Assembly: GCA_964632485.1 (NCBI GenBank)
Contig: CAZWDO010000003.1
Coordinates: 218,204 to 282,203 of the forward strand
Length of the DNA stretch: 64,000 bases
Direction: 5' to 3'
DNA from: an uncultured bacterium
GTDB lineage: Bacteria; JAGOEH01
Shown here: in pieces, positions 10,527 to 37,968 of the stretch
How positions within the stretch are numbered: the first letter of the stretch is position 1
Layout of the letters: every line of letters begins with the position of its first letter
Made by a program: the position numbers and the translations under genes
Notes under the pieces: model-generated
Seen by the model: only the letters and a program-made list of their open reading frames with translations
Told to the model about the DNA's origin: nothing
The model's database searches: none

Positions 10527-10664
10527 CAGTTATTGCCTTGCGATACCTGAAAAAAGGGAAGCACCAAATAAAACCGACCAAGAAAAGGAGGCGCTGCTTC
10601 GGATCTTTTACACACGTCTATTGTTTCAGTTAACCAAAAACGCTCGTCAAAACGGAGGGTTTAA

Positions 10665-12326
10665 ATGAGCTTGAAAAAAACCTTGATTCTTTTCATGATT
10701 CTGACGCTGGGATTGATTGGATCTCTCAGCGCCCAAGTACGTTACATCGATATCCAGGGAACGCAGTCCTTTTATAATTGCGGTCCCGTTGAACCCGGCG
10801 CCATTATTGAAGCCTATAATCAATATGACGTCAAATTGGCTCAAACGATTGTTATTAATGGCGGCCGCTATAGCATCCGTATATTTGAGGCCGATACGAT
10901 TAATCAGATTTTCGGTGTTCAAGAAGGCGAATTGATCAGTCTGGTTATCGATGGAAATGAAGTCATGCCTTATGGAGCATACGAATACCCCATCGTCTAT
11001 GCCAACGAAACCGGCGCCGACGTCATTGATTTTGAGTTTATGGCTCAGGATCCGGATGTTGTAACTAAATCCATCTATTTTATGACTTTTTCCAGTAGCG
11101 CAACCTATCTGAATGGCGGCTTAGTTCCTGTTGGAGCCATTGTTGAAGCGTTTATTCTAGAAACGGGAAAACAGATTGGAATAGATACCGTAAAGGTGAA
11201 TGGCCGATATAATATGAGCGCGTATGCCGATGCGGATATTACTGATTTCTGCGTTGAAGGCGCGCAAGCCGGTGACTCGATTGTTTTCACCATTAATGGC
11301 GCGATGGCCAAAGTGGTTGCCGGAAATGCGACATTTACCAGCGCTATGGATGTACAGACCGTTGATTTGTGCGCCAATGACGGCGTTATCGGCAGCGCGC
11401 AGAGTTGTTCATTTTACGGCGCCGTTTCGGTCAATGGCGTCAATGCCACGGCTGGTACTATTGTTACCGCCTATGATACCGATGGCATTGTTTGCGGACA
11501 ATTTACACTGACCCAGAATGGCCATTACAGTATGCTGGTATTCGGCGATGATGCCGCCACCGATGATGTATGCATGGATGAAGGCGCCCTCGAAGGTGAA
11601 GAGGTGGTGTTCTTTGTCGATGATGAGCCGGCTACCCAGTCTCCAGCCAATGTGACCTGGGTGCGGAATGGTATGTTGGAAGTCAATCTGACCGTCGGAC
11701 AGGCTCAGAGTAACAGTTGGTGCGATTTTATCGGCATCAATTGTAAATTTAACGGCGCTCCGCTTGCCCAGGGAATGACCGTCGCGGCTTATAATGCCCT
11801 TGACGATCAAATGTGCGGCACAGCGACCGTCGGCGCTCTCGGCGCTTTTACTATACGGGTGGTCGGTAAATCCGAGACTCCCGTTGTCGAAGGCCCGGAA
11901 GAAAATGATCCGATCTATTTTATGATTAATAACGAACGCGCTGCGGTTAAATCTCCCTATAACGATACTCTGTTCAGCAATTGGGGCAGTAAGTATGTTA
12001 CTTTGGAATCGCGCGTGGTTCCTGTAGTGGAAGATCAGAAAATCAACAAATCGTTGGAATTGAAACAGAATTATCCGAATCCATTCAACGGAACCACGGT
12101 AATTAGTTTCAATCTGCCTTCCGCGCAGAAAGTTTCCCTCAAAGTGTACAATATGCTGGGAGAGGAAATCTGCGTATTGGCGAACCGAACGATGTCCGCC
12201 GGATCGCATGAAATCGTTTGGGACGGCCAGGATCGTAATGGCCGCAGCGTTCCTTCCAGTATTTATTATTACCAGTTGTTGACGGGTCAGGAAAAACTCG
12301 TTAAACGTATGGTTTATATGAAATAG
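10665..12326 (+). CDS. Secreted T9SS cargo protein (553 aa) with four tandem ~100-aa repeats of an unassigned module and a C-terminal T9SS sorting domain
   Basis: RBS GGAGGG precedes the ATG. The N-terminus is a signal peptide (MSLKKTLILFMILTLGLIGSLSAQ). The module recurs four times with NG[RH]Y..GDD...EGA..GE..F.IN motifs. The C-terminus reads KQNYPNPFNGTTVISFNLP...YYYQL...VYMK. Confidence 0.8.
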   Translation: MSLKKTLILFMILTLGLIGSLSAQVRYIDIQGTQSFYNCGPVEPGAIIEAYNQYDVKLAQTIVINGGRYSIRIFEADTINQIFGVQEGELISLVIDGNEVMPYGAYEYPIVYANETGADVIDFEFMAQDPDVVTKSIYFMTFSSSATYLNGGLVPVGAIVEAFILETGKQIGIDTVKVNGRYNMSAYADADITDFCVEGAQAGDSIVFTINGAMAKVVAGNATFTSAMDVQTVDLCANDGVIGSAQSCSFYGAVSVNGVNATAGTIVTAYDTDGIVCGQFTLTQNGHYSMLVFGDDAATDDVCMDEGALEGEEVVFFVDDEPATQSPANVTWVRNGMLEVNLTVGQAQSNSWCDFIGINCKFNGAPLAQGMTVAAYNALDDQMCGTATVGALGAFTIRVVGKSETPVVEGPEENDPIYFMINNERAAVKSPYNDTLFSNWGSKYVTLESRVVPVVEDQKINKSLELKQNYPNPFNGTTVISFNLPSAQKVSLKVYNMLGEEICVLANRTMSAGSHEIVWDGQDRNGRSVPSSIYYYQLLTGQEKLVKRMVYMK

Positions 12327-12372
12327 TTGCTTTGGAAATCAAAGCAGTCTTTGTTTTAAAAGTCATCATTAC

Positions 12373-12410
12373 GCCGCCTTTATCCCAAACCGGGTAAAGG
12401 CGGCTTTTTT
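12373..12410 (+). terminator. Rho-independent terminator
   Basis: Stem gccgccttta ... taaaggcggc followed by TTTTTT. Confidence 0.55.
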
Positions 12411-12424
12411 GTTTAGTCAGGACC

Positions 12425-12592
12425 GTCATTCCGGGCTCGCGCCCGGAATCCACGGGTCACCTTCTGTCATTCCGGGCTTGACCCGGAATCCAACGATAAA
12501 CGATGGATGCCGGATCGGAGTCCGGCATGACGACGGATGATGGCATTCCGGCTTGACCGCCAGCGCGGCTCGCGCCCGGAATCCACGGGTCA
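12425..12592. repeat. Cluster of at least 4 GC-rich palindromic REP/MITE-like hairpin repeats (GTCATTCC-stem-loop-GGAATCC family)
   Basis: Perfect hairpins are present: gtcATTCCGGGCtcgcGCCCGGAATcc at 12425-12451, gtcATTCCGGGcttgaCCCGGAATcc at 12466-12491 and ATGCCGGAtcggagTCCGGCAT at 12507-12528. The segment ctcgcgcccggaatccacgggtca is duplicated at 12564-12592. Confidence 0.6.
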
Positions 12593-12605
12593 AAAAACCA
12601 ACTAT

Positions 12606-14351
12606 ATGAAAGGAACAAGCATGAGAAGAGTTTTTCAATATCTTCTGCTAATATTAATATCTATTATATCGGTCAGCCAAGCCCAGCAGTCCTGGAGAGT
12701 TGGATTTAAGCTGTATGTATTTATCGATAGCGTCAAAGCGCCCATTCATACAATCGTTGAAGTAAGAGATGTTAATGGTAGTCAATATGATAGTCAAAGT
12801 AAACCCTATGCGTCTCCAATAGTCTCAGAAGTTGAAACATCCTTAGGTACGGCTTTTATTAATGCTCTGGGCGATAATCCGAATACTTCCACAGTACAGG
12901 AAGGCGGATTTACTATTGGCCAAAAAATTTATTTCTATGTCAATAGCAAACGGGCAACAGTTAAGTGTAAGAGCCCGAGTAGTAATTGTGATCTTTATAC
13001 TAACCCTTCTGATCCTACGTTTCCCCCTTCCCAACGGGAGCTGGAAATTTACATTTCTTCCCAGCAACAGACCATTGATACATGTACTTTTACAGGCAGT
13101 GTGTTCATCAACAATGCGCCGGCTCCGGCAGGCTCCCAGATATCGTTTCACGACAAGAACAATCCTACAACATACACCTGGAAAACGATCGCCACTTCGT
13201 CATTGGGCTCATACACGGTAAAAATTGCGGAAGATGATCCGGAAACTACCGGTAAGCAAGGTCCTCTTGATGGAGACACTTTGATTGCGCGAATAAATAA
13301 TTTGTCCGCCGGATCGGATATCCCGCTTATTTTCCGTCCGGGACAAACCCAAATGGTAAGTCTTTCCTATACGGACCCTGACACTTTGCTGTGTACATTT
13401 AATGGAATGATGTGTATGCTGGACGGTCAATTCATAACGTCTCTGGTAACTGTGGAGGCCTTTAATAAGTACAATAAAGTGTGCGGCGCGGCAATCGGGA
13501 CATCCACTCCGGTTCCGGGTTCGTTTACCTTGAATGTTCGCAAAGAAAAAGGCGATAATACCGGTGTCGTAGAAGGCGATTCTGTTTATTTTAAGTTTAA
13601 CGGAGGCAAGGCCCGAACGACAACCATGAGTCCGACGCTTTCTCCATTTTTTTGTTATGAGGATTCCTCATATATGGTGGTTTTGGAAGCAACAACTCCG
13701 CCGCCACCCCAACCGGATACTAATTTTTTTATGCAGTTGTCCGGAACATTGTATGCCGGAGGAGCAGTGGCCAAGCGAAATCTGATTACTGTTAAAACCA
13801 GCGGGAAGACCATGGCTTGTACCACCGCTACCAACGATAACGGACAATTTATCCTGAAAGCCTGGGGCGATAGTCCGTTGACTACCGATGTGGTTGAAGG
13901 CTTTGAGGATGAAGATACCCTGACTTTTTACCATCTTTACAACGGAACAAATCAACCCGTTCAGATGCTCTATCCGACGACGCCCATCACATATGAATTG
14001 TTTGGACTGATTGCGAATATTATGATTTATAACAGTATCGTCGATATAGAAGCAGAAGAAACGCTGATCAAATCTCCAGCTCTGCTTTTATCCAATATTC
14101 CTAATCCGTTCAACCCCGGTACAAATATCCGCTTTAATTTAACAGAACGAACCAATGTGCAGATAACTATATTTAATGTGTTGGGGAATGAAATCAGGCG
14201 ATTGTCAAACCAGCTTTTCCCGGCGGGTGAACACCAGCTCTACTGGAACGGTTGCAGCGATCAGGGTGAACCTCAGTCCGCTGGTATCTACTTTGTCCGT
14301 TTACGGGCAGCGGATATGCAGCATACGCAGAAAATCACACTGATGAAATGA
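12606..14351 (+). CDS. Secreted T9SS cargo protein (~580 aa) with repeated modules related to the upstream neighbour. The start is probably ATG 12606 or 12621, not 12537, which lies inside the repeats.
   Basis: Signal peptide MRRVFQYLLLILISIISVSQAQ. The internal modules carry DNGQFILKAWGD...VVEGFEDEDTLTF-type motifs. The C-terminus reads LSNIPNPFNPGTNIRFNL...GIYFVRL..., a T9SS CTD. GC content is lower than in the flanking genes. Confidence 0.75.
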   Translation: MKGTSMRRVFQYLLLILISIISVSQAQQSWRVGFKLYVFIDSVKAPIHTIVEVRDVNGSQYDSQSKPYASPIVSEVETSLGTAFINALGDNPNTSTVQEGGFTIGQKIYFYVNSKRATVKCKSPSSNCDLYTNPSDPTFPPSQRELEIYISSQQQTIDTCTFTGSVFINNAPAPAGSQISFHDKNNPTTYTWKTIATSSLGSYTVKIAEDDPETTGKQGPLDGDTLIARINNLSAGSDIPLIFRPGQTQMVSLSYTDPDTLLCTFNGMMCMLDGQFITSLVTVEAFNKYNKVCGAAIGTSTPVPGSFTLNVRKEKGDNTGVVEGDSVYFKFNGGKARTTTMSPTLSPFFCYEDSSYMVVLEATTPPPPQPDTNFFMQLSGTLYAGGAVAKRNLITVKTSGKTMACTTATNDNGQFILKAWGDSPLTTDVVEGFEDEDTLTFYHLYNGTNQPVQMLYPTTPITYELFGLIANIMIYNSIVDIEAEETLIKSPALLLSNIPNPFNPGTNIRFNLTERTNVQITIFNVLGNEIRRLSNQLFPAGEHQLYWNGCSDQGEPQSAGIYFVRLRAADMQHTQKITLMK

Positions 14352-14373: not shown

Positions 14374-14398
14374 GTCATTCCTGCGTAGGCAGGAATCC
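14374..14398. repeat. Single REP-like hairpin of the same family
   Basis: gtcATTCCTGCgtagGCAGGAATcc is a perfect 8-bp stem. Confidence 0.5.
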
Positions 14399-14433
14399 AA
14401 GAATCTGGGAATCGGTGAACAAGGGATAACTGT

Positions 14434-14721
14434 ATGGATCAGGCTTATGTTTATATATTAGCCAGTAAAAAAAATGGAACATTGTATGTTGGAGTGACCA
14501 GCAATTTGCTCCGACGAATTTGGGAACATAAAAATGATCTTGTAGAAGGATTTACAAAGAACTACAATGTCCATGTGCTGGTTTTTTATGAAATTTTTAG
14601 TGAGATGTATCCGGCAATTACTCGTGAAAAGCAGTTGAAAAAATGGAAAAGAGAATGGAAGATAGGACTAATAGAGTCTATAAATCCGCAATGGAAAGAT
14701 TTGTATGAAAGTCTTTTATAA
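14434..14721 (+). CDS. GIY-YIG nuclease family protein (95 aa, UPF0213/YhbQ-like)
   Basis: YVYILASKKNGTLYVGVTSNLLRRIWEHK followed by ...REKQLKKWKREWKIGLI match the GIY-YIG catalytic core pattern (GIY...YVG...R...E). Confidence 0.8.
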   Translation: MDQAYVYILASKKNGTLYVGVTSNLLRRIWEHKNDLVEGFTKNYNVHVLVFYEIFSEMYPAITREKQLKKWKREWKIGLIESINPQWKDLYESLL

Positions 14722-14724
14722 AAG

Positions 14725-14850
14725 ATGGATGCCGGGTCAAGCCCGGCATGACGGCGGTGGCTCATGGATGCCGGGTCAAGCCCGGCATGACGGCGGTGAC
14801 TCATGGATGCCGGGTCAAGCCCGGCATGACGGCGGTGATTTATGGATGGC
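14725..14850. repeat. Tandem array of ~3.3 copies of a 39-bp unit. Each unit contains the hairpin ATGCCGGGtcaagCCCGGCAT, the reverse-orientation variant of the 12.4 kb REP family.
   Basis: Unit atggatgccgggtcaagcccggcatgacggcggtgRctc at 14725-14763, 14764-14802 and 14803-14841, plus a partial fourth copy. The loop tcaag is the reverse complement of cttga in the 12466 copy. Confidence 0.7.
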
Positions 14851-16458: not shown

Positions 16459-16485
16459 GGCCGAGTAAAATTTTTTTACTCGGCC
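16459..16485. terminator. Perfect 12-bp-stem hairpin downstream of the symporter gene, followed by a partial direct repeat. It is a possible terminator or regulatory element.
   Basis: GGCCGAGTAAAA ttt TTTTACTCGGCC; a ~24-bp segment (aaatttttttactcgRcMattSaac) is repeated directly at ~16500-16525. No T-run follows beyond the stem, so the terminator assignment is tentative. Confidence 0.35.
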
Positions 16486-16810
16486 ATTGAACGCGCAGCA
16501 AATTTTTTTACTCGACAATTCAACAAATTTTTAGTCATAAATATTTTAATTTTGATTTGAGTATGTAAAGGTTTTTTTTCTAAATGAAATTCTATAGTAA
16601 GTTTAGTTGAGTTTTAAAAATTAACTTATTATTAATCAATCACATCGAAATATATTTGTTTATTAAATACACAGTATTTGCCATTTGAGGACTCGCTTTT
16701 GGCAGCAAATTTTTATATATGGACACAAATCAGACAAATTTCACTCCTGAAAGTGGTCAGGAAAAAACTTGAGTTTTAAGTTGGAATGAAAAATGCAATA
16801 TTGTACATGT

Positions 16811-18052
16811 ATGAAAATTAGAAGTCGAATTATACTCAGTTTCCTTCCTTTCCTTCTCCTTAGCGGAACCATGGAGGGACGGGTCTGGTTGGTAGCGGTC
16901 GGTATCGATCGATACCTCGATGCCCGCATCCCGTCTCTCCACTATCCGTCAGCCGATGTAAGCTACGTGCTTGATGTATTAGCTGTAAATCCCAGTCGCG
17001 TGATACCCCGTCAGTTGCTGAATGAGGAAGCGACCTGGCGCGGATTGCGAAGTCTGCTACTAAATACATTGCAACGGCAAATGGTTGATACTGATACCCT
17101 GGTTTTCTATTTTTCAGGGCATGGGCATTTTCTGGAGGACTCGAAATTGGGCAATCATCAATATATAGCGCTCTATGACAGCTCGCCGGATGATATGAGT
17201 ACCTACCTTAATGAAGATGAATTAGCCGGATGGCTTGATCGGATTCACTGCCGTTTGAAAATTCTTATTTTTGATTCCTGCTCACCGATGGACTTTCGAA
17301 TTGAGGCAATTTCAACACTGCCGTTAAATAATCCCCGAAGTTTAAAGAATATGCTTATATGGTCTGCCAATCAGGAGCAGGGAAAAACATGGGAGGTACC
17401 ATTTCTCAACCATTCGGCATTTACGTTTCTTCTGATGCAAGCATGGAAAGGTTACGCCGATGCGGATCGTAACGGTAAAGTCAGCGTTAAAGAGACCCGT
17501 CGTTATCTGGACTCGATGATCCTGAAAATTCCAGGCGCTGCCGAATATCGGCCACAAACCGTCGTCAATGGCGATCCGTTGACATTAAATGATTTTCAGT
17601 GGGTTTATCCGCCGCAGATTATATCACAGGCGATAGTGGTTGCAATCGACAGCAGTCATGCTGTTATTGACATGGGTAGAGAAAATTTGCCATCCAGGAA
17701 TGCGATTTGCTATCATCCCGCCACTCAGCAACGCTATAAATTTTTAGAGATACTGGATTATGCTGCTATGATCGAACGCAACGGCATGTTAAAAATGGGA
17801 GATCGGTTGGAGATTAAAATGCCGGATGCAGGTGGGGAATTGATTCTGGAAGTTAAACCCTGGGCCATGGCCGAATTGAATCAACGCCCCTACGGTTATA
17901 CTCCCCTGCGAATCAAAGATTTAGCTCCCGGCGAGTATAAGTTGCGCTTGACTCATCCGGAACTGGGCGCCCGGGTTCTTAATTTTTCGTTGACGCCTGG
18001 CGAGCAAAAACGACTTTTTATCAATTTTGCTGAACTACCGGAGTCGGAATGA
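16811..18052 (+). CDS. Secreted caspase-like cysteine peptidase (peptidase C14/CHAT-like fold) with a C-terminal PEGA domain
   Basis: Signal peptide MKIRSRIILSFLPFLLLSG. The caspase His/Cys dyad context is present: VGIDRY...YFSGHGH...ILIFDSCS. The C-terminal PYGYTPLRIKDLAPGEYKLRLTHPELG matches the PEGA motif. A 4-bp ATGA overlap joins it to the next gene. Confidence 0.7.
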   Translation: MKIRSRIILSFLPFLLLSGTMEGRVWLVAVGIDRYLDARIPSLHYPSADVSYVLDVLAVNPSRVIPRQLLNEEATWRGLRSLLLNTLQRQMVDTDTLVFYFSGHGHFLEDSKLGNHQYIALYDSSPDDMSTYLNEDELAGWLDRIHCRLKILIFDSCSPMDFRIEAISTLPLNNPRSLKNMLIWSANQEQGKTWEVPFLNHSAFTFLLMQAWKGYADADRNGKVSVKETRRYLDSMILKIPGAAEYRPQTVVNGDPLTLNDFQWVYPPQIISQAIVVAIDSSHAVIDMGRENLPSRNAICYHPATQQRYKFLEILDYAAMIERNGMLKMGDRLEIKMPDAGGELILEVKPWAMAELNQRPYGYTPLRIKDLAPGEYKLRLTHPELGARVLNFSLTPGEQKRLFINFAELPESE

Positions 18053-20073
18053 AAATTCGTTACTTAATTGCCGGTATCATTTTTTCCCTGCTGATGCTAT
18101 TTACGTTTACTCCCTGGTATAGTGAACTTGAATTTTGGTGTTATGATACATTAGCAGGTCATTTATCGCGGACGGTCAGTGATTCAGTGGTATTAATCGC
18201 TGTTACGCGGGATGATTTAGAGGCATTGCAGAGTTATCCGATCGCCGATGACTATTGGGCATTGCTAATTGAGGGATTGGACCGGGTACAGGCCGGCCAG
18301 GTCATTATGGATATGTTTTTTCCTCCCCGTAAGGCGGATGATTGGGATATTTTGGGTTTAACGCTGGCGCGGACCCGTATTCCGGTTATTTTTTCAGTAC
18401 CTTGCGAATGGGTTGAGCAGAATAACCCGTTACCCTACCAACAATGGGTGAAGTATGGTTATAGTAATATCGATTTGTCGGTTGACGGGTATGCCCGTTC
18501 ACTTCCCTCCCGAGGACCCTGTTCACTCCCTGCATTATATCAGGTTGCCCTGGATTTGCCGGATCAATCCCAAGCTGCGAGTTGTTTACTGATTCCCCCC
18601 TATCCGTTTATAGAGGATTACCGTCATTATACACTGAACGAGGCGCTCAATCTGCTGAATCAGCCGGAAAGTTCCGATGCTTTTTCCCATAAGCGTGTTT
18701 TTGTTGGATATCATGTCCCCGGCATTGCCCCGTTTTTTCAAAGTCCTGCCAGCGATCAAGTATGTTCCGGACTTAATCTGCAGGCCAATTACGTAAATGC
18801 AATTCTGACGGGGAGTCGGATCGTCCGGCCTGAATTCAGCATACAACGCTTATGGTTATTTTTTTGGTGGATATTATTGAGCCTGGGGGTGTTATTTTTA
18901 ACTCGTAAACGAAGTATTATTTCTTTTTTAAGCATTTCATTTTTGTTTACGCTGATGATGCTTATAGTTTTATGGACAATGGGAGTTTATTTACCGTTGC
19001 TTTTCCCCATGATTGGCGGTATTTTTCTTTATATCATGTTAGGGTTTACGGTGGCGTTTGAACGGGAAAAAGAATTGCGAACCCGCTTAACGTCACAAAA
19101 CCACATTATCGAGCAAATTATCGCGAATCTGCCCGGTTTAGCAGCCTTGATGAATGAAGAAGGCGTGATTATATATAGAAATGGACGTGAAGGCGTCGGA
19201 ATCAGGCGAGAGGAAATAGATGATCGATATTGGCGGACGATTTTTGCCGGGAAGGAATCTGAAATCTGGTGGCAGCAGAAGGTGAATGGCCGTGATTATC
19301 GAATGATGCTGATTCGACTCTCCGGTCTAAAAGATTTTTGTGGACAAACCCGTGTACTTTTATTATCTTATGATATAACGGAGAATCTGGAATTGGAAAG
19401 TAAACTGAAACAACAGGAACATTTAGCTTCATTGGGTCGAATGGCGGCCAATGTGGCGCATGAAATCCGCAATCCATTGGCCGGTATGGAATTGACTGCC
19501 GCAAGTATCAGGGAAAAGGTATCGGATCGGCCGGAAGTTACTGCGTATGTAAATAATATGGCTTTAGCTCTCAACAGCTTAAACCGATTTGTCAGTGAAT
19601 TTTTAAAATTTAGCCGAAGTTTTCAGCTTAATCCGATTTATTGCGATTTGATACCAATTATCACCGAAGCCCTTGATCAAATTGATCGGGAGGGAAAACC
19701 GATCACAATTGAACGGAACGAGCCGGAACTCTTAATGCTCAGCGCCGATTGTGATCGTTTACGTCAAGTGATGATCAATCTTTTACAAAACAGTGTTCAG
19801 GCCATTCGTAATAATGGAGAAATTCGTATAGAAGCGCGCCAGATTGAGGATAGGGCAGTTATTACTCTGGCGGATAACGGAGAAGGTATAGACCCGGAAG
19901 ACCTGGAGAAAGTGATGGAGCCTTTTTTTACGACTCGGGCGCGCGGGATTGGATTGGGTTTGTCGATTTGCCGACAACTGATCGAGGCGCATGACGGACA
20001 GTTACAGATCGTCAGTCAACGGAATCTGGGAACGAAAGTGACAATTACCTTGCCGATTGGGAGTGAGTTATGA
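18049..20073 (+). CDS. Sensor histidine kinase with an N-terminal CHASE2 extracytoplasmic domain, a TM segment, and HisKA + HATPase_c domains
   Basis: N-terminal TM, then VLIAVTRDDLEALQSYPIADDYWALLIEGL...VIMDMFFP (CHASE2-like). H-box HLASLGRMAANVAHEIRNPL. G-boxes DNGEGIDPE...GIGLGLSICRQL. Confidence 0.8.
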   Translation: MKIRYLIAGIIFSLLMLFTFTPWYSELEFWCYDTLAGHLSRTVSDSVVLIAVTRDDLEALQSYPIADDYWALLIEGLDRVQAGQVIMDMFFPPRKADDWDILGLTLARTRIPVIFSVPCEWVEQNNPLPYQQWVKYGYSNIDLSVDGYARSLPSRGPCSLPALYQVALDLPDQSQAASCLLIPPYPFIEDYRHYTLNEALNLLNQPESSDAFSHKRVFVGYHVPGIAPFFQSPASDQVCSGLNLQANYVNAILTGSRIVRPEFSIQRLWLFFWWILLSLGVLFLTRKRSIISFLSISFLFTLMMLIVLWTMGVYLPLLFPMIGGIFLYIMLGFTVAFEREKELRTRLTSQNHIIEQIIANLPGLAALMNEEGVIIYRNGREGVGIRREEIDDRYWRTIFAGKESEIWWQQKVNGRDYRMMLIRLSGLKDFCGQTRVLLLSYDITENLELESKLKQQEHLASLGRMAANVAHEIRNPLAGMELTAASIREKVSDRPEVTAYVNNMALALNSLNRFVSEFLKFSRSFQLNPIYCDLIPIITEALDQIDREGKPITIERNEPELLMLSADCDRLRQVMINLLQNSVQAIRNNGEIRIEARQIEDRAVITLADNGEGIDPEDLEKVMEPFFTTRARGIGLGLSICRQLIEAHDGQLQIVSQRNLGTKVTITLPIGSEL

Positions 20074-21458
20074 CCGCTCAGATACTGGTTGTGGATGATG
20101 AACTCTATATGCGGGATACGATTGCCCATATATTAATGGATGAAGGGTACCGCGTGATGACTGCCGGTGATGGCGCAGAGGCGCTTAAAGAGATCGAAAA
20201 AACGGCGTTTGATGTCGTTTTAACCGATTTGCGCATGCCGGGTGAGATTAATGGTATGAAACTGCTTGAAATGATAAAGCAACGTGAATTTGAAACAAAA
20301 ACTATTATGATGACGGCTTACAGTAGCGTGGAAACCGCTGTTGACGCTATGCGGTTTGGAGCTTTTGACTATATACAAAAGCCGTTTCAACCGGTGGAAT
20401 TGAAAGTCAGAATCCAGCGGGCAGTGGAATCGATCCGCCGTCAACGGGTGGCGGAGAGTCAATTAGAGGAAGTGGATCAACGTTATACACTCATTGGTTT
20501 ATCACCGGCAATGGATGAAATCCGCCGATCGATCAAAGAGATCAGTCAAACAGATTTTCCTGTGTTGATTACCGGAGAAAGCGGTACGGGGAAGGAGTTG
20601 GTAGCGCGGCAGATTCACTTACAGAGCCGACGGCGGGAACAGCCTTTCGTGGCGCTGAATGTATCCACAATGAATGGTAATCTGGTTGAAAGCGAACTTT
20701 TCGGCCATGAAAAAGGGGCGTTTACCGGCGCTGTGAACCGGCGGATCGGGAAATTTGAACTGGCAACTGATGGCTCGCTTTTTCTTGACGAAATCGGTGA
20801 TTTAGACCTCGAAATGCAAACTAAATTCTTACGTGTATTACAGGAAAAAGAGTTTCATCGTGTGGGAGGCAATCAGTTGATTGTAACAAACACTCGCATT
20901 ATCGCCGCTACATTGCAGGATCTCTCTACCATGATTCAGGAAAATCGGTTTCGAGAAGACTTGTTTTACCGTTTGAATGTATATCCAATTCACATGCCGC
21001 CATTACGCCGACGCAAAGAGGATATCCCATTGCTGTTGGAACATATAGTCCGCAAGCATGAAGGCCAGATACCCCAACCCGTTGAACGCGTGGAGCCGGG
21101 TGTTGTCGATCGATTATGCGCGTATAATTGGCCCGGGAATGTGCGGGAATTTGAAAATGTCATAATTCGTATGCTGATCAGAACTCGGGATGGCGTGTTA
21201 CGGGCAGAGCAGATTCCGGCAGACATCGGTGGAACGGGCTTCATGCTGCAAGAAGGAGATAAGGAAACGTTGGAACAGTTAACCGATCGCTGGTTGGATA
21301 AAGTGATGCAAACAGGGAAAAACAAACCCCTGATGCAGTTCATCGAAAGTCTGATTGCTCAACGGTTTTTTATGCTTCACGGGGAAAAACAACGCGCGGC
21401 CGATTTGTTGGGCATTTCAAAACCGACCTATTTTAAATGGTTAAAGCGAGAATTATGA
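20070..21458 (+). CDS. Sigma-54-dependent response regulator (NtrC family: REC, AAA+ with GAFTGA, HTH)
   Basis: DDELYMRD...TDLRMPG (REC domain), GESGTGKE Walker A, EKGAFTGA sigma54-contact motif, and a C-terminal HTH (LLGISKPTYFKWLK). Confidence 0.85.
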   Translation: MTAQILVVDDELYMRDTIAHILMDEGYRVMTAGDGAEALKEIEKTAFDVVLTDLRMPGEINGMKLLEMIKQREFETKTIMMTAYSSVETAVDAMRFGAFDYIQKPFQPVELKVRIQRAVESIRRQRVAESQLEEVDQRYTLIGLSPAMDEIRRSIKEISQTDFPVLITGESGTGKELVARQIHLQSRRREQPFVALNVSTMNGNLVESELFGHEKGAFTGAVNRRIGKFELATDGSLFLDEIGDLDLEMQTKFLRVLQEKEFHRVGGNQLIVTNTRIIAATLQDLSTMIQENRFREDLFYRLNVYPIHMPPLRRRKEDIPLLLEHIVRKHEGQIPQPVERVEPGVVDRLCAYNWPGNVREFENVIIRMLIRTRDGVLRAEQIPADIGGTGFMLQEGDKETLEQLTDRWLDKVMQTGKNKPLMQFIESLIAQRFFMLHGEKQRAADLLGISKPTYFKWLKREL

Positions 21459-22693
21459 AAAAAATTGCTCTTTGTTTATTCCTTTGCGTAACATCCTTGG
21501 TCGCTCAATCCTGGGTAGCGCGTGTCCAGATTCTAAAAGGACAGGCTTTTTTAAATCGGGAACGGCTTAAAGTGGGACAGGAAATCAACCTTGCGCCCTC
21601 CGATACAATCCGCTGTGGCAAAGCAAGCCGTCTGGACCTTGAATTGACAGGGCTCTGCCACCTATCCCTGAAGGATTCAACAGAATTGGTTTTTCAGGAT
21701 CTCTATTTGCAGTTGCGATTAGGCATCATGCGACTGCGCCTGCCGGCAAAGGCAGAAGGTGAGCAACCATGGATTGTAAAAACCCGACAATTGCAAACAG
21801 CCGCGTTACAAGGCCGTAAATCCAGCGATTTCGCATTGTTAGCCAACGAAGATACAACCATTATTGCTGTTTACCAGGGCGATTCTTTACAGGTTCAACG
21901 TATGGATAATGGAGAAAAAGGTCTGGAAATCCTTTATCTAAAACCCTGGCAGGGATTCAGGCGCTTTTATGACCAGTGGGGCGGTCGCATCAACTGGCGC
22001 AATACACGGCTTGATATTACGATATGGGGCAAAGATTTATTGTATAACGACTGGTTAGAAAAACAATTATTGATAGATGAAGCCGCTTTTAATCTGGATT
22101 CTCTGATTAGCGACGGAAATCTTGATAGTTCTGATTTACATAATGCCTTGATGAAACGCGCTTATTTCGCTCTTTACGATAATGATCAAAAAGTTGCGGA
22201 AGATGCTATCCGGCAGGTATTGACGACAAATCATGAGTATCAGTTACCAGCAGATTTACAGTCTCCGAAATTTAAGGATCTATATTACCAAGTGATGGGC
22301 CAGGTTTCACAAGAGGCGGGATTAACTCCCCGGGCGGTTTCTTTATGGAATCCTCTCGTACCTGGATTGACCCAGCTAAATTGCGGCCAAACTTTGAAAG
22401 GCACTGTACTTTTAGGTACTCAAATGGTATTGCTGGCTGGGTTCTGGTACAATCAGACCCGGCAGGCTGATTATGAAAACCGGATGCGCCTGGCCACAAC
22501 TGCCGCGGATGTTGATCGTTATTATCAACAAAGCTTGCATCATTATGACCGGAAACAGGTTTTCTTTTATACCGCGTTAGGAGTTTATGCGTTCAATCTA
22601 CTGGATGCCTTCCATACCCGACATCGCTGGCAAGCGCAATTGCGGGCTTCACTTGAAAGTATTAACGTTGGAGTAGCCTGGAAGTTCGAATGA
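21455..22693 (+). CDS. FecR-like domain protein with a signal peptide (probably periplasmic or membrane-associated)
   Basis: Start at the ATGA overlap with the regulator stop. Signal MKKIALCLFLCVTSLVAQ. The beta-sandwich-like region (SRLDLELTGLCHLSLKDSTELVF...WIVKTRQLQTAAL...IIAVYQGDSLQV) resembles the FecR fold. Hydrophobic C-terminal segments are present. Confidence 0.45.
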   Translation: MKKIALCLFLCVTSLVAQSWVARVQILKGQAFLNRERLKVGQEINLAPSDTIRCGKASRLDLELTGLCHLSLKDSTELVFQDLYLQLRLGIMRLRLPAKAEGEQPWIVKTRQLQTAALQGRKSSDFALLANEDTTIIAVYQGDSLQVQRMDNGEKGLEILYLKPWQGFRRFYDQWGGRINWRNTRLDITIWGKDLLYNDWLEKQLLIDEAAFNLDSLISDGNLDSSDLHNALMKRAYFALYDNDQKVAEDAIRQVLTTNHEYQLPADLQSPKFKDLYYQVMGQVSQEAGLTPRAVSLWNPLVPGLTQLNCGQTLKGTVLLGTQMVLLAGFWYNQTRQADYENRMRLATTAADVDRYYQQSLHHYDRKQVFFYTALGVYAFNLLDAFHTRHRWQAQLRASLESINVGVAWKFE

Positions 22694-22703
22694 CCTTTCC
22701 CCA

Positions 22704-23753
22704 ATGGAATCCCGGATGATGACTAATAGATTTTGGATATTAATTATAGAATTGGCAATAATCATCGGATATAGTGTTTCCTGTTTTAATAAACCGATCA
22801 AACCGGACTTGCCGCCTGAGATTGTATGGTTTCAACCGTCCGATGGCATGAGCGTCATTGAGGGATCAACTGTGGTTTTTGAACTTAAAGGTCAGGATGA
22901 CCGTCGATTGGAGATGATTAAACTTTATTTGGATGGAACAATCGTTGATTCGGTTTTTAGTGATTCAATTCGGTATTCCTGGGTGACGACCGGGGCTGAG
23001 GGAGTGCATTCATGGTATTTTTATTTGCGTGATACTCATGATCAGATTATACAGACCGAATTGGCTTTGCTAACGGTGCAACCTTTTTCTTTTCAAGTGA
23101 TGGCGCCGGACAATGATTATTTTATAGTGGATACCCTTTCTTTATGGTTGAGATGCGAGAATTGGCAATTGGGGGGGCAATTGAGTGTCCTGGGAAATGA
23201 AATTCAACTTAATGAACCCTTCGATCTTCATAAGAAATTCCAAATTTCTTTAGATCAATTTTCTTCCGGAGCATACAATACAATGATTCGCATTTTGGAT
23301 AACCGGCAACAGCTATTAACAGAACAGGAATACACATTAATAAAAGTTAATGATGCCGTCCTGTCGTTTCCCGACACCCTGTTGGCCCGGGAACCGTACA
23401 ATTTTGTTTTACCGTTAAGAATTCAGGCGGTCCAACGACTTTATTCGCTGGATTTTAAAGTTTTATTTTACAAAGATGTCATTGTCATTGACAGTGTTAA
23501 ACCTGAGGGCGTGACTTCACAATACCTGGCATTTTCAACTACGCTGCTGAGCTCTCCGGAGCAAATGTCGGTTACATTTCGGGCGAAACCGGGGCAATTT
23601 GTTGATGGCGACCATCAGTTGTTTAAGTTTTTTGTCCATCGGGGCGCGCAATCCTACAGTGATCGTGTGAGTTTATTAAAATTTACCGGTATTTTGGGAA
23701 ATGGCGGCGCTTTATCTGTTTATGGCAACAACTGCCGAATCTGGTTTGAATAG
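22704..23753 (+). CDS. Membrane-anchored hypothetical protein (N-terminal TM, probably extracytoplasmic Ig-like beta domains)
   Basis: N-terminal hydrophobic anchor FWILIIELAIIIGYSV. The remainder is beta-rich. No recognisable catalytic motif. Confidence 0.45.
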   Translation: MESRMMTNRFWILIIELAIIIGYSVSCFNKPIKPDLPPEIVWFQPSDGMSVIEGSTVVFELKGQDDRRLEMIKLYLDGTIVDSVFSDSIRYSWVTTGAEGVHSWYFYLRDTHDQIIQTELALLTVQPFSFQVMAPDNDYFIVDTLSLWLRCENWQLGGQLSVLGNEIQLNEPFDLHKKFQISLDQFSSGAYNTMIRILDNRQQLLTEQEYTLIKVNDAVLSFPDTLLAREPYNFVLPLRIQAVQRLYSLDFKVLFYKDVIVIDSVKPEGVTSQYLAFSTTLLSSPEQMSVTFRAKPGQFVDGDHQLFKFFVHRGAQSYSDRVSLLKFTGILGNGGALSVYGNNCRIWFE

Positions 23754-23768
23754 ATTAGGGAGAGAATT

Positions 23769-25289
23769 ATGCAACGAATGATTTACACAGTTATATTTTT
23801 AGGTTTTATATTAGCAATGAGCCATCGCGCATCTACGATTTTAGTGGGGCCGGGCGGAGATATACAAAGCGCGATTGATCAATCGGTATGGGGCGATACG
23901 GTTTTATTAGAAAAGGATTTCCGCATTGTTCCTTCCTTGAGATTAAAAGATGGCGTCATTTTGCGTGGAATCAGAAAAGATAGTTGTATTTTAAATTTTG
24001 GCGGGGATGATTATTTCATCAGCGTGGAAAATACCAGTCGCAATGTTATTGAAAATTTAACAATTATCAGCATAGGCGTCTTGCCGAAATCGATGGTCTA
24101 TACAGATCAATGTCGGTATTTGAGTCTAAAAAACGTGGAGTTCCAGGGTGGAAATCTGTCAGTTTTCGCGAGGGGTAGTTATCTTTATATTGATAACGTT
24201 TTATTTTCCAATCGCCAGACAAATCTTGAATTGGAACTCAGCGGCGGGATTATTCGAAATTCCCGTTTTATGAGTGATAATAGCGGATTAATTATTAAAG
24301 GAAACGTTCGCGATTCATTGATTGTTGAAAATAATCGGTTTGAAACGGGGAAATCCATTGTATATTGTGAGAATGCGGGAAATGGATTACGCTTTCTTCA
24401 TAATGAATTTTCAGCGCCATCAGCGAATATGATGATCAATGCGATCGGCAGTTCGCTGGAGCTGGCATTCAATCGAATCCTGTTACAAACTAACGCGACG
24501 GGGATAGCGCTTTCCGGTTCATCTATGGCATATTTTCATCATAATGTTTTCCTCAGCGAGCAAAGCGGGAGCGCCATTGCGGCTGTCAACTGCGAAGCAG
24601 TTCTCTGCCATAACAATACATTTTTAAATTTTAGCAATGTATTGGCCGGATATGAATCGTATCTTTCTTTTGTCAATAATATTTGCGCCAATACATCGCT
24701 CATTGGCGATACGGCCATCCAATTGGTGAGTTCTAAAAAAAATGTGGTTCGATATAATGATTTTTGGGGATTTGAAGCAGATGTGAGTGGAACACTTGAC
24801 ACAGCATTATCAGAACATAATATATTTGCTGATCCTTATTTTATCAGCCAGGATTTTTCCGATACGCTCAATTTTTTATGTCTGGATTGTCAATCCCCCT
24901 GTATAGATAGCGGGGATCCAGCATTTGATGCTGGAAAAGAGCCGGATAATAGTATAATTGACATGGGATTTACCGGGAATACCGTGAGGGGCTGCGGTTA
25001 TAAAGCCGTCTCGGTCGATGAAGATAGCAGACAGCCGGAGGAAGATTTTAAATTAGCAGTTTATCCGCTTCCAGTTGACGACCATATTACCATCCGCTGG
25101 GGGGTTGATGAATTTGCAAGAGAAGTTTCGATTTATAATTTAATAGGGGAACGTGTGGCATGTTTTCCAGTTTCACCAGGATCAGTAAATTTTAGCTTTA
25201 ACTGTTCCAGGTTTCCTGCCGGGTGTTATTTGATCAGAGTGTTATCCGGCGGAAAAGCGCTGTATGCCAGGTTTATGATTTGCCGGTAG
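23769..25289 (+). CDS. Right-handed parallel beta-helix repeat protein with a C-terminal T9SS sorting domain
   Basis: Signal peptide. Repeated N-rich turns (NNVFLSE..., HNNTFLNFSN..., VNNICANTS...) typical of PbH1/pectin-lyase-like folds. The C-terminus reads KLAVYPLPVDDHITIRW...SIYNLIGERV...GCYLIRV, a T9SS CTD. Confidence 0.7.
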   Translation: MQRMIYTVIFLGFILAMSHRASTILVGPGGDIQSAIDQSVWGDTVLLEKDFRIVPSLRLKDGVILRGIRKDSCILNFGGDDYFISVENTSRNVIENLTIISIGVLPKSMVYTDQCRYLSLKNVEFQGGNLSVFARGSYLYIDNVLFSNRQTNLELELSGGIIRNSRFMSDNSGLIIKGNVRDSLIVENNRFETGKSIVYCENAGNGLRFLHNEFSAPSANMMINAIGSSLELAFNRILLQTNATGIALSGSSMAYFHHNVFLSEQSGSAIAAVNCEAVLCHNNTFLNFSNVLAGYESYLSFVNNICANTSLIGDTAIQLVSSKKNVVRYNDFWGFEADVSGTLDTALSEHNIFADPYFISQDFSDTLNFLCLDCQSPCIDSGDPAFDAGKEPDNSIIDMGFTGNTVRGCGYKAVSVDEDSRQPEEDFKLAVYPLPVDDHITIRWGVDEFAREVSIYNLIGERVACFPVSPGSVNFSFNCSRFPAGCYLIRVLSGGKALYARFMICR

Positions 25290-25483
25290 CTTTGATTTGT
25301 AAAAAGAAGCATCGGTTTCCAATCTATACTATTTTTTGTATGGTATCTCACCGGTTAAACTAAAGGCTGATTGATTAGTCCCGTGGAATGACGCGAATTG
25401 TAATATGTTATGGCCGAATGGGTCTGACTATCCGTTTGCAGACTCATTTTAATTTGCAATGATATAAAAAGAAAGGAAAGAGA

Positions 25484-26694: not shown

Positions 26695-27043
26695 GGGGGC
26701 GAACATGGTTTCGACGGGGAAAAAGAAGTGCCGGTTGCATACCGAGGACCCTGAGGCCTCGTAAAAAACAGGGAACAAGTTAGCTGCGAACGATTACTCG
26801 TACGCCATGGCTGCCTAATTCGCGGCCTCCCTATTTGCTTTCTCCCCTGATGGGAAGTGAATCGGGTCGATTAGTCAGGGTGCTGCGCAGCCCGAGTCTG
26901 AGGGTCAGGCCTAAGAACAAACAGACTGGTCAGCAGTGACGTTGGCTTTCTCTCTTACTGCTGATGAGATTAAAAGAAAGCTATGTATGTAGACGCTGGT
27001 ATGGAAGATTCTTCGGACGTGGGTTCGACTCCCACCGCCTCCA
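26695..27043 (+). ncRNA. ssrA: Transfer-messenger RNA (tmRNA, SsrA)
   Basis: The 5' end GGGGGCGAACAUGGUUUCGACGGGG is the tRNA-like acceptor/D analogue. An internal ORF follows the resume codon: GCG AAC GAT TAC TCG TAC GCC ATG GCT GCC TAA, giving tag ANDYSYAMAA. The 3' end ends GGGUUCGACUCCCACCGCCUCCA (T-arm, acceptor strand complementary to the 5' GGGGGCG, discriminator A); CCA is not encoded. Confidence 0.85.
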
Positions 27044-27046
27044 TTC

Positions 27047-27106: not shown

Positions 27107-28339
27107 ATGAAAATTCTGCACACATCCGATTGGCATTTGGGACGAAGTCTCAACGGCCGCAAACGTTATGAGGAGCAAGAGGCGTTCCTTGACTGGTTGG
27201 CTGAAACCATTGATCGTGAAGGGATCGATGCATTATTGGTGGCTGGCGATCTTTTTGACGCCAGTACTCCCAGCAACCGCGCTCAGGAACTCTATTACCG
27301 TTTTATGTGCCGAGTGGCGTCCTCGCCCTGTCGGCATGTGGTCGTTATTGGCGGCAACCATGATTCACCCTCCTTTCTTGACGCGCCCAAAGAATTGCTC
27401 AAGTCGCTGAATGTTCACGTTGTCGGCAGCATTACTGATAATCCAGACGATGAGGTGATCGCGCTCGCCGATGCGCGGGGAGCTACTGAATTGGTCGTAT
27501 GCGCCGTGCCTTACCTGCGTGATCGTGATATCCGCTCAGCGGAAGCAGGTGAGAGTATAGAGGACAAGGAACGCAAGCTGGTCGAGGGAATTCGCAATCA
27601 TTATGCAGAAGTCACGCGTTCGGCGGAATCTAAGCGCGCCGAAGCGGGCGGCAATATCCCGCTGGTCGCCATGGGGCATCTGTTCACCGCTGGTGGGTTG
27701 ACCGTCGCTGAGGACGGCGTGCGTGAACTCTATGTAGGATCGTTGGCCCATGTCCGCGCTGACAATCTGCCCGCCAGTCCTGATTATTTCGCATTGGGCC
27801 ATCTTCATGTTCCGCAAACTGTCGGCGGGTCTGATTATATCCGCTATTCCGGATCGCCCATTCCCATGGGATTTGGCGAAATCAATCATGCCAAAAGCGT
27901 GGTCATCGTGGATTTTTCGGATGGAATTCCGCCGCGGATATCGGAGATTCCCGCGCCGCTGTTTCAGCGAATGGAACGTGTTCGCGGAGATTGGTCTCAA
28001 ATTGAGGCCCGACTTCGGGAACTGGCCGCCGCCGGAGTCTCGATCTGGCTGGAAGTAGTTTATGAAAGCGACGAAATCATGGGCGATCTGCGCCAACGCG
28101 TGATGGAACGGGTCGAGAATACCTGTCTCGAAGCGCTGAACGTAAAAAATCCCCGCGCCATTGAAAAAGCCCTGGAACAATCCCAGTGCCATGAATCCCT
28201 CGAGGAATTAGATGAGTACCAGGTGTTCGAACGTCTGCTATCGTCCCGGAAGGCGCCGGAAGAGCAGAGATCGGCATTGATTCATACCTATCGCGAAGCG
28301 GTTCAGTCGCTTTACGACGATGATGCGAATGCGGAATAG
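27107..28339 (+). CDS. sbcD: Exonuclease SbcCD nuclease subunit D (Mre11-like phosphoesterase)
   Basis: RBS AGGAGG. MKILHTSDWHLG...LLVAGDLFD...VIGGNHDS are the calcineurin-like phosphoesterase motifs I-III. Confidence 0.85.
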   Translation: MKILHTSDWHLGRSLNGRKRYEEQEAFLDWLAETIDREGIDALLVAGDLFDASTPSNRAQELYYRFMCRVASSPCRHVVVIGGNHDSPSFLDAPKELLKSLNVHVVGSITDNPDDEVIALADARGATELVVCAVPYLRDRDIRSAEAGESIEDKERKLVEGIRNHYAEVTRSAESKRAEAGGNIPLVAMGHLFTAGGLTVAEDGVRELYVGSLAHVRADNLPASPDYFALGHLHVPQTVGGSDYIRYSGSPIPMGFGEINHAKSVVIVDFSDGIPPRISEIPAPLFQRMERVRGDWSQIEARLRELAAAGVSIWLEVVYESDEIMGDLRQRVMERVENTCLEALNVKNPRAIEKALEQSQCHESLEELDEYQVFERLLSSRKAPEEQRSALIHTYREAVQSLYDDDANAE

Positions 28340-37148: not shown

Positions 37149-37968
37149 ACTCTGGCATTATCAGTTCTTCCTTCATGCGATGGCCGCTATTGGATTGGGG
37201 AGTATTGTGTGTGGGGTGATTGGCACTTATATTGTCAGTCGGCGGATGGTCTTTATTGCCGGCGGAATAACGCACAGCGCCTTTGGAGGAATTGGCCTTG
37301 CGTGGTATCTGGGGTTTCCTCCCTTGTTGGGCGCTACGTTAGTTGCCGTTGCCGTTAGTCTTATCACAGAACACTCCATCCAGCATCGTGAATTCCGTCA
37401 GGATACAATGATTGGCATTCTTTGGTCAATCGGTATGGCTTTCGGGATTGTTTTTGTATCGCAGACGCCCGGGTACGCGCCCAATCTAATGAGCTATCTT
37501 TTTGGAAATATTCTATTGGTCAGCCAGTTCGATTTGTACTTTATGAGTGGTTTGGCCGGATTGGTTATTCTGATTAATTGGGCATGTTATCGGCAAATTA
37601 TATATACAGCGTTTGACCGGGAGTTCATGCTCACCCGGGGTGTAGCGGTAAAGACGATTCAAGTTGTGATGAGCATCCTGATTGCTCTGACCATTGTAAT
37701 TATGATACGGATTGCCGGCATTATGCTGGTGATTTCTCTGTTGACAATTCCCCAAACGACGGCAAATCTTTTTTTTCGTTCCTATAAAAAAATTGTTGTC
37801 GCGTCGATCTTATTAGCTTTAGTTTCAGGGCTGGGGGGACTCGTGGGGGCCTATTATTGGAATTTGCCAACCGGCGCGGCAATTATCATTTTTGCCACAT
37901 TGGTTTACCTCTTGGCAAAATTGGCAAAGACTGGGTTTCGCTTGTGGAAAAAAGTAGATCATGAATAA
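37138..37968 (+). CDS. znuB: Metal ABC transporter permease (ZnuB/TroC family)
   Basis: Eight-TM ABC-3 family permease. Overlaps znuC by 11 bp. Confidence 0.75.
   Translation: MMVELWHYQFFLHAMAAIGLGSIVCGVIGTYIVSRRMVFIAGGITHSAFGGIGLAWYLGFPPLLGATLVAVAVSLITEHSIQHREFRQDTMIGILWSIGMAFGIVFVSQTPGYAPNLMSYLFGNILLVSQFDLYFMSGLAGLVILINWACYRQIIYTAFDREFMLTRGVAVKTIQVVMSILIALTIVIMIRIAGIMLVISLLTIPQTTANLFFRSYKKIVVASILLALVSGLGGLVGAYYWNLPTGAAIIIFATLVYLLAKLAKTGFRLWKKVDHE

Follow-up and report, generated by a model that had tools for sequence, protein, structure and literature searches.

What a CHASE2 sensor domain detects, and by what route, is the question raised by a cluster of six genes in contig CAZWDO010000003.1 of an uncultured bacterium (assembly GCA_964632485.1), of which a 64 kb stretch, called the window below, was analyzed. 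CHASE2 occurs in kinases, cyclases, and cyclic di-GMP enzymes, and no paper that gives a direct ligand or sensing mechanism for it was found in the literature searched; the one characterized case found, that of S. meliloti, suggests that the signal is a protein and that envelope proteins relay it (PMC13001267). In the cluster, a CHASE2 sensor histidine kinase (g2) and an NtrC-type response regulator (g3) are preceded by a gene for a putatively exported caspase homolog (g1) and followed by genes for an exported protein that is plausibly FecR-like (g4), a lipoprotein (g5), and a beta-helix protein with a sorting tail of the type IX secretion system (T9SS; g6). We think, with a probability of roughly 0.55, that the locus is a single transcription unit whose products are a two-component system for envelope sensing and the exported proteins that serve it as accessories.

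Open reading frame (ORF) calls place the six genes on the same strand, where they fill positions 16793/16811 to 25289 of the window (Table 1). The first four are joined by ATGA motifs at 18049 (g1–g2), 20070 (g2–g3), and 21455 (g3–g4) in which start and stop codons overlap, and gaps of 10 and 15 bp separate g4 from g5 and g5 from g6, respectively; the junction sequences bear out on both counts what an earlier note on this DNA had described. The g1 ORF has a further in-frame ATG at 16793, the ORF of g4 extends upstream to 21437, and GGAG-type ribosome-binding sites are present at the operon genes other than g1, whose start at 16811 has none. Judged from these junctions, g1 through g4 are translationally coupled. 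The six genes are one real operon of conserved order, and it is highly probable that this operon functions as a two-component system plus accessory proteins. Its GC content (0.42–0.47) is the same as that of its flanks, and the genes around it are ordinary chromosomal ones (a sodium:solute symporter, PNP_UDP_1, SbcCD, an ABC transporter, and methylmalonyl-CoA mutase, among others). Rfam found no RNA family within or upstream of the operon, scans for sigma-70 promoters and terminators gave no excess over background, and a tblastn search of the PLSDB plasmids with the CHASE2 region gave no match.

Table 1. Positions in the window of the six operon genes and of the candidate elements upstream of them.
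Feature	Position	Strand	Description
Palindrome	16459..16485		GGCCGAGTAAAA-TTT-TTTTACTCGGCC, perfect 12+12 bp, core GAGTAAA-N5-TTTACTC; may serve as operator or as upstream activator site
Second right half-site copy	16500..16524	+	AAATTTTTTTACTCGACAATTCAAC; direct repeat D1, 88% identical, start-to-start distance 32 bp
GG-N10-GC block	16783..16797	+	GGAATGAAAAATGCA; candidate sigma-54 -24/-12 element or A-rich translation start
g1	16811..18052 (ATG also at 16793)	+	Putatively exported orthocaspase, Peptidase_C14
g2	18049..20073	+	CHASE2 sensor histidine kinase (by Pfam, NCBIfam, and hydropathy)
g3	20070..21458	+	NtrC-family sigma-54-dependent response regulator
g4	21455..22693 (ORF from 21437)	+	Exported protein; predicted signal peptide, plausibly FecR-like, TPR-like, and DUF5683/LB_137-like parts
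g5	22704..23753	+	Predicted lipoprotein; N-terminal Big_7 Ig domain, all-beta remainder
g6	23769..25289	+	Secreted right-handed beta-helix protein (predicted); T9SS type-A C-terminal sorting domain

The host relatives in which the same arrangement recurs are a few uncultured bacteria related to Candidatus Delongbacteria (L002, L004–L007, L009, and L012 are our labels for contigs or loci of relatives and homologs). In L004 the whole set is present, ordered as in the window and with its 4-nt overlaps retained, the proteins from g1 to g6 being 37, 39, 60, 36, 37, and 38% identical to those of the window, and L002 and L007 together hold the six-gene cluster split over two contigs of a Ca. Delongbacteria metagenome-assembled genome from a sludge digester. 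Shorter pieces are found in L006 (g2-g3-g4-g5), L009 (g3-g4), and L005, which has g3-g4, a short g5 (hidden Markov model [HMM] E=1e-12), and the start of a g6 (a weak match, HMM E=0.015). Assemblies and sequencing runs in which the operon is present are ERZ27262927, SRR7760392, and SRR19430209. All related contigs of sufficient length agree in gene order, and no counter-example was found. The g4 proteins fall into four deep lineages with 29–36% pairwise identity, and their gene always follows g3; scans of genomes (GTDB representatives) and of metagenomes with patterns from the g4 alignment added one and two loci, respectively. The earlier note had proposed to call the cluster a chance juxtaposition if its order were not conserved; order and overlaps in fact recur at 36–60% identity, and because they do so in divergent relatives the arrangement, as far as the sequences tell, is more than chance.

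Two of the genes, g1 and g4, appear to be specific to this system, since hardly any relatives of theirs occur elsewhere. Among 5.8 billion proteins g1 has a single full-length relative (P0003, 36% identity); the only full-length relative of g2 is P0043 (39% identity). In a set of 1.84 billion representative proteins the g4 family comprises four clusters that are full-length, with three full-length relatives of g4 itself, and a word-indexed search with g4 returned the query alone.

It could nevertheless be argued that the block is a historical accident, in which the ancestral synteny of a few relatives has kept together genes that have no functional link beyond the g2–g3 pair. The flanking genes are syntenic too, and the approximately five lineages known all come, where their source is known, from similar anaerobic-digester-type metagenomes. 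On the other hand, the 4-nt overlaps have been kept at 36–40% protein identity, which counts against pure ancestry; in the window lineage an SSF symporter gene and a GIY-YIG gene have been inserted beside the block and none inside it; and g1 and g4 are all but absent from other contexts among billions of proteins. Mere juxtaposition is thus very improbable.

The central pair of the operon matches well-known families. The g2 protein contains CHASE2 (PF05226; 85.9 bits), HisKA (43 bits), and HATPase_c (93 bits) domains in Pfam, and its predicted layout consists of a transmembrane (TM) segment at residues 3–21, an ectodomain of ~245 amino acids, three further TM segments between 267 and 335, a cytoplasmic linker of ~125 residues (without a Pfam match, and PAS-like by eye), an H-box, and the HATPase_c domain. 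The H-box reads HEIRNP and places His471 at the phospho-acceptor position. The g3 protein combines Response_reg (107 bits), Sigma54_activat (229 bits), and AAA_lid_14 domains; its receiver has a putative phospho-acceptor, Asp53, in the motif VVLTDLRMPG, a GAFTGA loop lies at 216, and a C-terminal helix-turn-helix is weakly detected (HTH_23, E=0.0022). The CHASE2 sensor kinase with its flanking TM segments and the sigma-54 regulator of NtrC type that had been proposed for these two genes are therefore both present. Within NCBIfam the kinase core is best matched by AtoS and ZraS and the regulator by NtrC, AtoC, and ZraR, all below the equivalog cut-offs (ntrC, TIGR01818, gives 446 bits against 558.6), so g3 is a member of this family and not NtrC, AtoC, or ZraR itself. 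The operon differs from such NtrB/NtrC-class systems (ZraS/ZraR, AtoS/AtoC) in that its sensor domain is CHASE2 and its accessory proteins are unrelated. The same general logic is found in ZraS/ZraR with ZraP, where a sigma-54 activator goes with an accessory envelope protein.

The protein encoded by g1 should be a caspase homolog that acts on the far side of the cytoplasmic membrane. Its Peptidase_C14 domain (PF00656) scores 27.7 bits against a Pfam cut-off of 21.4, and His104 (in SGHG) and Cys157 (in DSC; residues are counted from the ATG at 16811) are invariant in an alignment of g1 with 15 homologs and also in both orthologs. A search of the Protein Data Bank (PDB) by phmmer with the single g1 sequence gave no match and a profile was needed; that built from g1 and its homologs matches the metacaspase structures 6w8s (5e-21), 3bij (bacterial GSU0716; 6e-18), and 4f6o (2e-16). 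The earlier description of a caspase-fold peptidase with an intact His/Cys dyad thus holds, and by that dyad g1 is a putative protease. A DADRNG loop in g1 resembles an EF-hand, and the protein also has a beta domain in its center and a PEGA-like one at its C-terminus. A PEGA domain had been claimed for it; at 20.0 bits the match to PF08308 is 0.8 bits short of the cut-off of 20.8, and the precomputed match in the L004 ortholog is marked "weak." At the N-terminus a basic stretch is followed by ~13 hydrophobic residues without any 19-residue TM segment, and this run, being too short to register as a TM segment, is probably a signal peptide according to its hydropathy.

A caspase homolog next to a CHASE2 gene might also belong to a conflict, abortive-infection, or programmed-death system akin to those with EACC and TRADD-N modules, with CHASE2 sensing attack and the caspase as effector. 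Caspase-CHASE2 fusions do occur in cyanobacteria and in EACC2 systems (PMC3501461, PMC2853523, PMC8195603), and the best NCBIfam match of g1 is caspase_w_EACC1 (NF047832; 1e-13). That match, however, reaches 51 bits where the cut-off is 140, and no PADLOC defense model matches g1, g4, g5, or g6, those that match g3 doing so through the generic AAA+ core. The caspases of the published fusions are cytoplasmic by prediction, while g1 carries a putative signal for export along with its PEGA-like domain; the output of the operon is a transcription factor, and it contains no NTPase or effector-associated module; and its GC content is that of its flanks and its neighbors are housekeeping genes. We regard such a system as extremely unlikely here.

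Three regions can be distinguished in g4, namely a FecR-like beta region (residues ~50–142), a TPR-like helical region (~195–290), and a helical hairpin with a terminal beta hairpin (~300–410). At E<=0.01 the window copy has no Pfam match. When the Pfam threshold is relaxed, FecR is listed in four of the five family members (best E=0.0035), and in the window copy this match covers positions 1–94 of the 97 in the model, so that a FecR-like identity of g4 is plausible. The C-terminal third resembles DUF5683 (E=0.019 in Pfam) and the Leptospira LB_137 family (8.5e-8 in NCBIfam). Searches of PDB sequences with the g4 profile gave only TPR-like matches, which are insignificant. An AlphaFold2 (AF2) model from a four-sequence alignment has a mean predicted local distance difference test score (pLDDT) of 55 and is confident only for the helical parts, and Foldseek found only weak TPR matches for it (E>0.05).

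It is this gene that ties the operon to what is known of other CHASE2 sensors. The Burkholderia "BiofilmReg" operon encodes a response regulator, a LysM/FecR protein, a CHASE2 histidine kinase, and a DUF4136 protein, and P. aeruginosa PAO1 has a pair consisting of a FecR protein and a CHASE2 kinase (PMC5192318); much as is predicted for the window, with g4 as the plausible FecR-like counterpart, a CHASE2 kinase is there co-transcribed with a response regulator and an exported FecR-type protein from tightly packed or overlapping genes. The differences are nonetheless considerable. The BiofilmReg regulator is of the OmpR/CreB type and g3 is a sigma-54 activator; the BiofilmReg FecR protein has LysM and passes the Pfam threshold, whereas g4 has TPR-like and DUF5683-like parts and a sub-threshold FecR; and a caspase, an Ig lipoprotein, and T9SS cargo are all absent from BiofilmReg, while the six-gene operon lacks a DUF4136 protein. 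Neither LysM nor DUF4136 was detected by Pfam in the operon proteins; of the components that define BiofilmReg the CHASE2 kinase alone is shared, and the operon is not of that type.

A second group of parallels is formed by CHASE2 adenylate cyclases. In Campylobacterota these lie in clusters with a phosphodiesterase, a FecR protein of the outer membrane, and a protein with TPR (PMC9239204), and in S. meliloti CyaD1, CyaD2, and CyaK are associated with NsrA, SMc02177 (FecR), and SMb20495 (TPR) (PMC5498481, PMC13001267), Clr-regulon genes encoding SMc02177 and a TPR protein (PMC5498481). The S. meliloti cyclases answer a plant protein signal by way of an outer-membrane protein (PMC13001267), in keeping with sensing through partner proteins, and the FecR and TPR proteins are dispensable for signal perception (PMC5498481, PMC13001267). 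The clusters resemble the operon, if g4 is indeed FecR-like, in that a CHASE2 ectodomain is accompanied by extracytoplasmic FecR-domain and TPR proteins; they differ in that FecR and TPR are separate proteins, which appear fused in g4, that their output is cAMP rather than a phosphorelay to sigma-54, and that no protease is involved. The link between caspase and CHASE2 has its own precedents in the Trichodesmium metacaspase-CHASE2 fusions (PMC3501461, PMC2853523) and in an EACC2-caspase-CHASE2 protein (PMC8195603). The same two domain families are joined there, but in one polypeptide whose caspase is predicted to be cytoplasmic and presumed to be an effector; in the operon the genes are separate, the caspase appears to be exported to the side of the sensor domain, and the predicted output is a transcription factor. 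Both FecR-like and CHAT/caspase-like genes had been put forward as recurrent neighbors of CHASE2 sensors. For FecR the literature agrees (PMC5192318, PMC9239204, PMC5498481), while the caspase partner is on record as a cytoplasmic fusion (PMC3501461, PMC8195603). The pairing of CHASE2 and FecR genes and the caspase-CHASE2 fusions are thus already published; the papers searched describe neither translational coupling between the gene of an exported caspase and that of a CHASE2 kinase nor the six-gene combination, in accord with the suggestion that the latter may not have been described elsewhere. CHASE2 sensors paired with accessory proteins of FecR type are a known kind of system, and the operon is best classed as a variant of it that is restricted to a few lineages, all uncultured.

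The last two genes encode surface or secreted proteins. Though g5 had been taken for a membrane protein, its sole hydrophobic segment is the signal sequence, and it appears instead to be a lipoprotein; the lipobox reads VSC, GAGC, and LAAC in three orthologs, its Cys27 is invariant, and a conserved motif, CF.KP.KPDLPPE, follows. Big_7 is found in all three g5 orthologs, and a single-sequence AF2 model was unusable (pLDDT 35). In g6, Por_Secre_tail (PF18962) covers residues 431–504 of 506 with 32 bits against a cut-off of 27, and the same tail is present in the three orthologs (TIGR04183 gives 20.1 bits in the window copy, its cut-off being 23), so that the T9SS cargo proposed earlier is well founded. 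The beta-helix ascribed to it is backed by two of these three orthologs (Beta_helix, PF13229, 9.4e-6), but the window copy has no Pfam beta-helix match at E<=5 and only NosD in NCBIfam (4.8e-5), far under the cut-off of that model.

With such products the traffic may run in the other direction, that is, the CHASE2/NtrC pair may sense an unrelated envelope or environmental cue and drive a co-transcribed surface toolkit made up of the protease, the Ig lipoprotein, the T9SS beta-helix protein (as adhesin or enzyme), and a protein for anchoring, to which the neighboring giant T9SS proteins may also belong. Operons that encode a regulator plus the products it regulates are common. A T9SS tail and a beta-helix are typical of secreted enzymes and adhesins, and three more T9SS cargo genes lie immediately upstream, where they are syntenic in L004 and L002. 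Against this, g1 is coupled upstream of the kinase and g4 follows directly after the regulator in every lineage, a placement that suggests proteins made at a fixed ratio to the sensor and not cargo made in bulk. In phyla unrelated to one another, it is specifically with CHASE2 sensors that FecR-like proteins are found again (PMC5192318, PMC9239204). The T9SS genes upstream, moreover, end in conserved terminators of their own, and neither the palindrome nor the GG-N10-GC block described below is present at them. We therefore consider it somewhat unlikely, although this is the main rival to the reading we favor, that the exported proteins are the outputs of the system and not part of its sensing side.

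The region upstream of g1 contains elements through which an accessory-equipped two-component system of the kind we favor could regulate itself. The palindrome core GAGTAAA-N5-TTTACTC matches once in the 64 kb window (16463–16481; 0 expected by chance), once in L004 (8668–8686), and once in L002 (3843–3861), in the latter two likewise in the intergenic region upstream of g1. Its arms are conserved in sequence itself, with no compensatory change, and since they do not co-vary a protein-binding site is favored over an RNA hairpin; the palindrome is a candidate binding site, most simply for g3. It lies ~75 bp upstream of the GG-N10-GC block in L004 and L002 and ~320 bp upstream of it in the window. 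When the upstream regions of the three lineages are aligned, this block appears as GGWATNWAAAATGCA, and the distance from it to an ATGAA start, itself conserved, is 13 nt in each; set against the sigma-54 consensus, it reads as a degenerate TGGAAT-N5-ATGCA. The block fits a degenerate -24/-12 element in an AT-rich context, and we give its being a sigma-54 promoter a little less than an even chance; autoregulation of the operon through these conserved elements is tentatively proposed with about the same reserve.

If the locus does encode a sensing system with its own accessory proteins, its working might be as follows. The CHASE2 ectodomain would sense through protein partners and not a small molecule, with g4 as co-sensor, as has been proposed for FecR-domain proteins beside other CHASE2 sensors; by that analogy, g4 is about equally likely to be or not to be a partner of the sensor. 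The g1 protease would stand on the input side, where it would produce a protein ligand or break one down, or else cut g4, g5, or g6. Phosphate would pass from g2 to g3, and g3 would activate sigma-54-dependent transcription, its targets probably including the promoter of the operon itself by way of the palindrome and the GG-N10-GC block; the beta-helix protein g6 may, hypothetically, be an output of the signaling. We infer all links beyond the kinase–regulator pair from sequence. Proteolytic gating by g1 is unlikely, and it seems quite doubtful that g1 is a dedicated signaling protease that switches g2 on or off by cleaving g4, a surface protein (g5 or g6), or an incoming foreign protein.

Several observations speak against this picture. 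Synteny continues past the operon in L004 and L002, with genes for one giant T9SS protein and for two T9SS paralogs upstream and PNP_UDP_1 (62% identity) downstream; as the flanks too are syntenic, common descent, and not selection, may account for some of the conservation. The relatives are no more than a handful of metagenomic contigs, and the assignment of signal peptides and topology comes from hydropathy and visual inspection. Nothing points to a substrate of g1, and neither of the two other exported caspase homologs inspected adjoins a CHASE2 gene (one of them sits between an extracytoplasmic function [ECF] sigma factor and a histidine kinase). The FecR match in the window copy of g4 (PF04773, residues 50–142, E=0.033) reaches 15 bits against a gathering score of 24, and hhalign of the g4 family with E. 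coli FecR was negative (probability 0.2%), although this is a weak test with a single-sequence template; the FecR-like assignment made earlier is thus backed by sub-threshold matches in four of five members and weakened by these two results. In the AF2 model the N-terminal FecR-like region is predicted as beta strands, with pLDDT <50. Concerning transcription, a promoter at the GG-N10-GC block would leave a leader of ~3 nt and so a nearly leaderless mRNA, and the block can equally be read as the A-rich context of the in-frame ATG at 16793. No canonical TGGCAC-N5-TTGC element lies upstream of any operon gene; the search for such promoters that had been recommended yielded none near the operon, and the consensus scan of the window found 48 sites where 53 were expected, without enrichment.

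The sole one-mismatch matches to TGGCAC-N5-TTGC in the window are at 37221–37235 (+), in an ABC-3 permease gene, and at 28177–28191 (-), in sbcD, and being inside coding regions both are probably chance matches. A looser weighted scan was discarded, as it gave many equal-scoring sites inside genes and its score alone is uninformative. In L004 the PNP_UDP_1 gene (17245–18132) begins 15 bp after g6 and could be a seventh co-transcribed gene there; in the window the corresponding spacer (25290–25483) is 194 bp. Between PNP_UDP_1 and sbcD, at a distance of ~1.4 kb downstream from the operon, there is a full-length tmRNA gene (26695–27046, +; Rfam RF00023, 181.7 bits). Exported caspase homologs are also found elsewhere. 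One, in L012 (2696–8128), is fused to an outer-membrane beta-barrel domain, the gene order being ECF sigma factor, 210-amino-acid protein, caspase fusion, 416-amino-acid protein, and protoglobin histidine kinase; the 416-amino-acid gene was tested as a relative of g4 and is not one. This context hints that exported caspases may recur in envelope signaling modules beyond those with CHASE2.

The region directly upstream encodes three further proteins with tails of the C-terminal-domain type, two of which pass the Por_Secre_tail cut-off. The first (72–10469) has 3,465 amino acids, FlgD_ig, and a sub-cut-off CHU_C match, and the others (10665–12326 and 12537–14351) are paralogs of ~550–600 amino acids with FlgD_ig and Por_Secre_tail. 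These genes are syntenic in L004 (1–8612) and L002 (195–3784) at 31–42% identity, and they might belong to the same functional neighborhood or regulon as the operon. A noncoding block, GAAAWAAGGGAAGC...AA.TAAA.C...AAAGGAGGC, is conserved in three lineages ~50–100 nt before the first small T9SS gene (~10575–10625 in the window, upstream of the gene at 10665; ~4905–4960 in L004; ~80–135 in L002) and could be a promoter or 5' leader element. An intrinsic-terminator hairpin, GCCGCCTT...AAGGCGGCTTTTTT, is conserved between the two small T9SS genes (window ~12365–12412, L004 ~6845–6890, L002 ~2000–2045), which should therefore be separate transcription units. GC-rich hairpin repeats that resemble repetitive extragenic palindromes, with the core CCGGGCTTGACCCGG (4 copies against 0.26 expected), lie at 12428–12492, at 14375–14400, and, as three tandem 39-bp units, at 14726–14840, flanking the 12537–14351 T9SS gene and the small GIY-YIG gene (14434–14721). 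The tandem copies and the GIY-YIG and SSF genes occupy the stretch between that T9SS gene and the operon; since L004 and L002 have neither gene there, this stretch looks like a lineage-specific insertion.

Among CHASE2 systems, the operon offers a compact candidate, small enough to be reconstituted, in which sensing through protein partners and proteolysis could be tested. Should g1 indeed gate the kinase, this would define the first mechanistic input for a CHASE2 domain, and g1 would be the first bacterial caspase homolog whose role is to process signals outside the cytoplasm and not to serve within it as an effector of death or defense.

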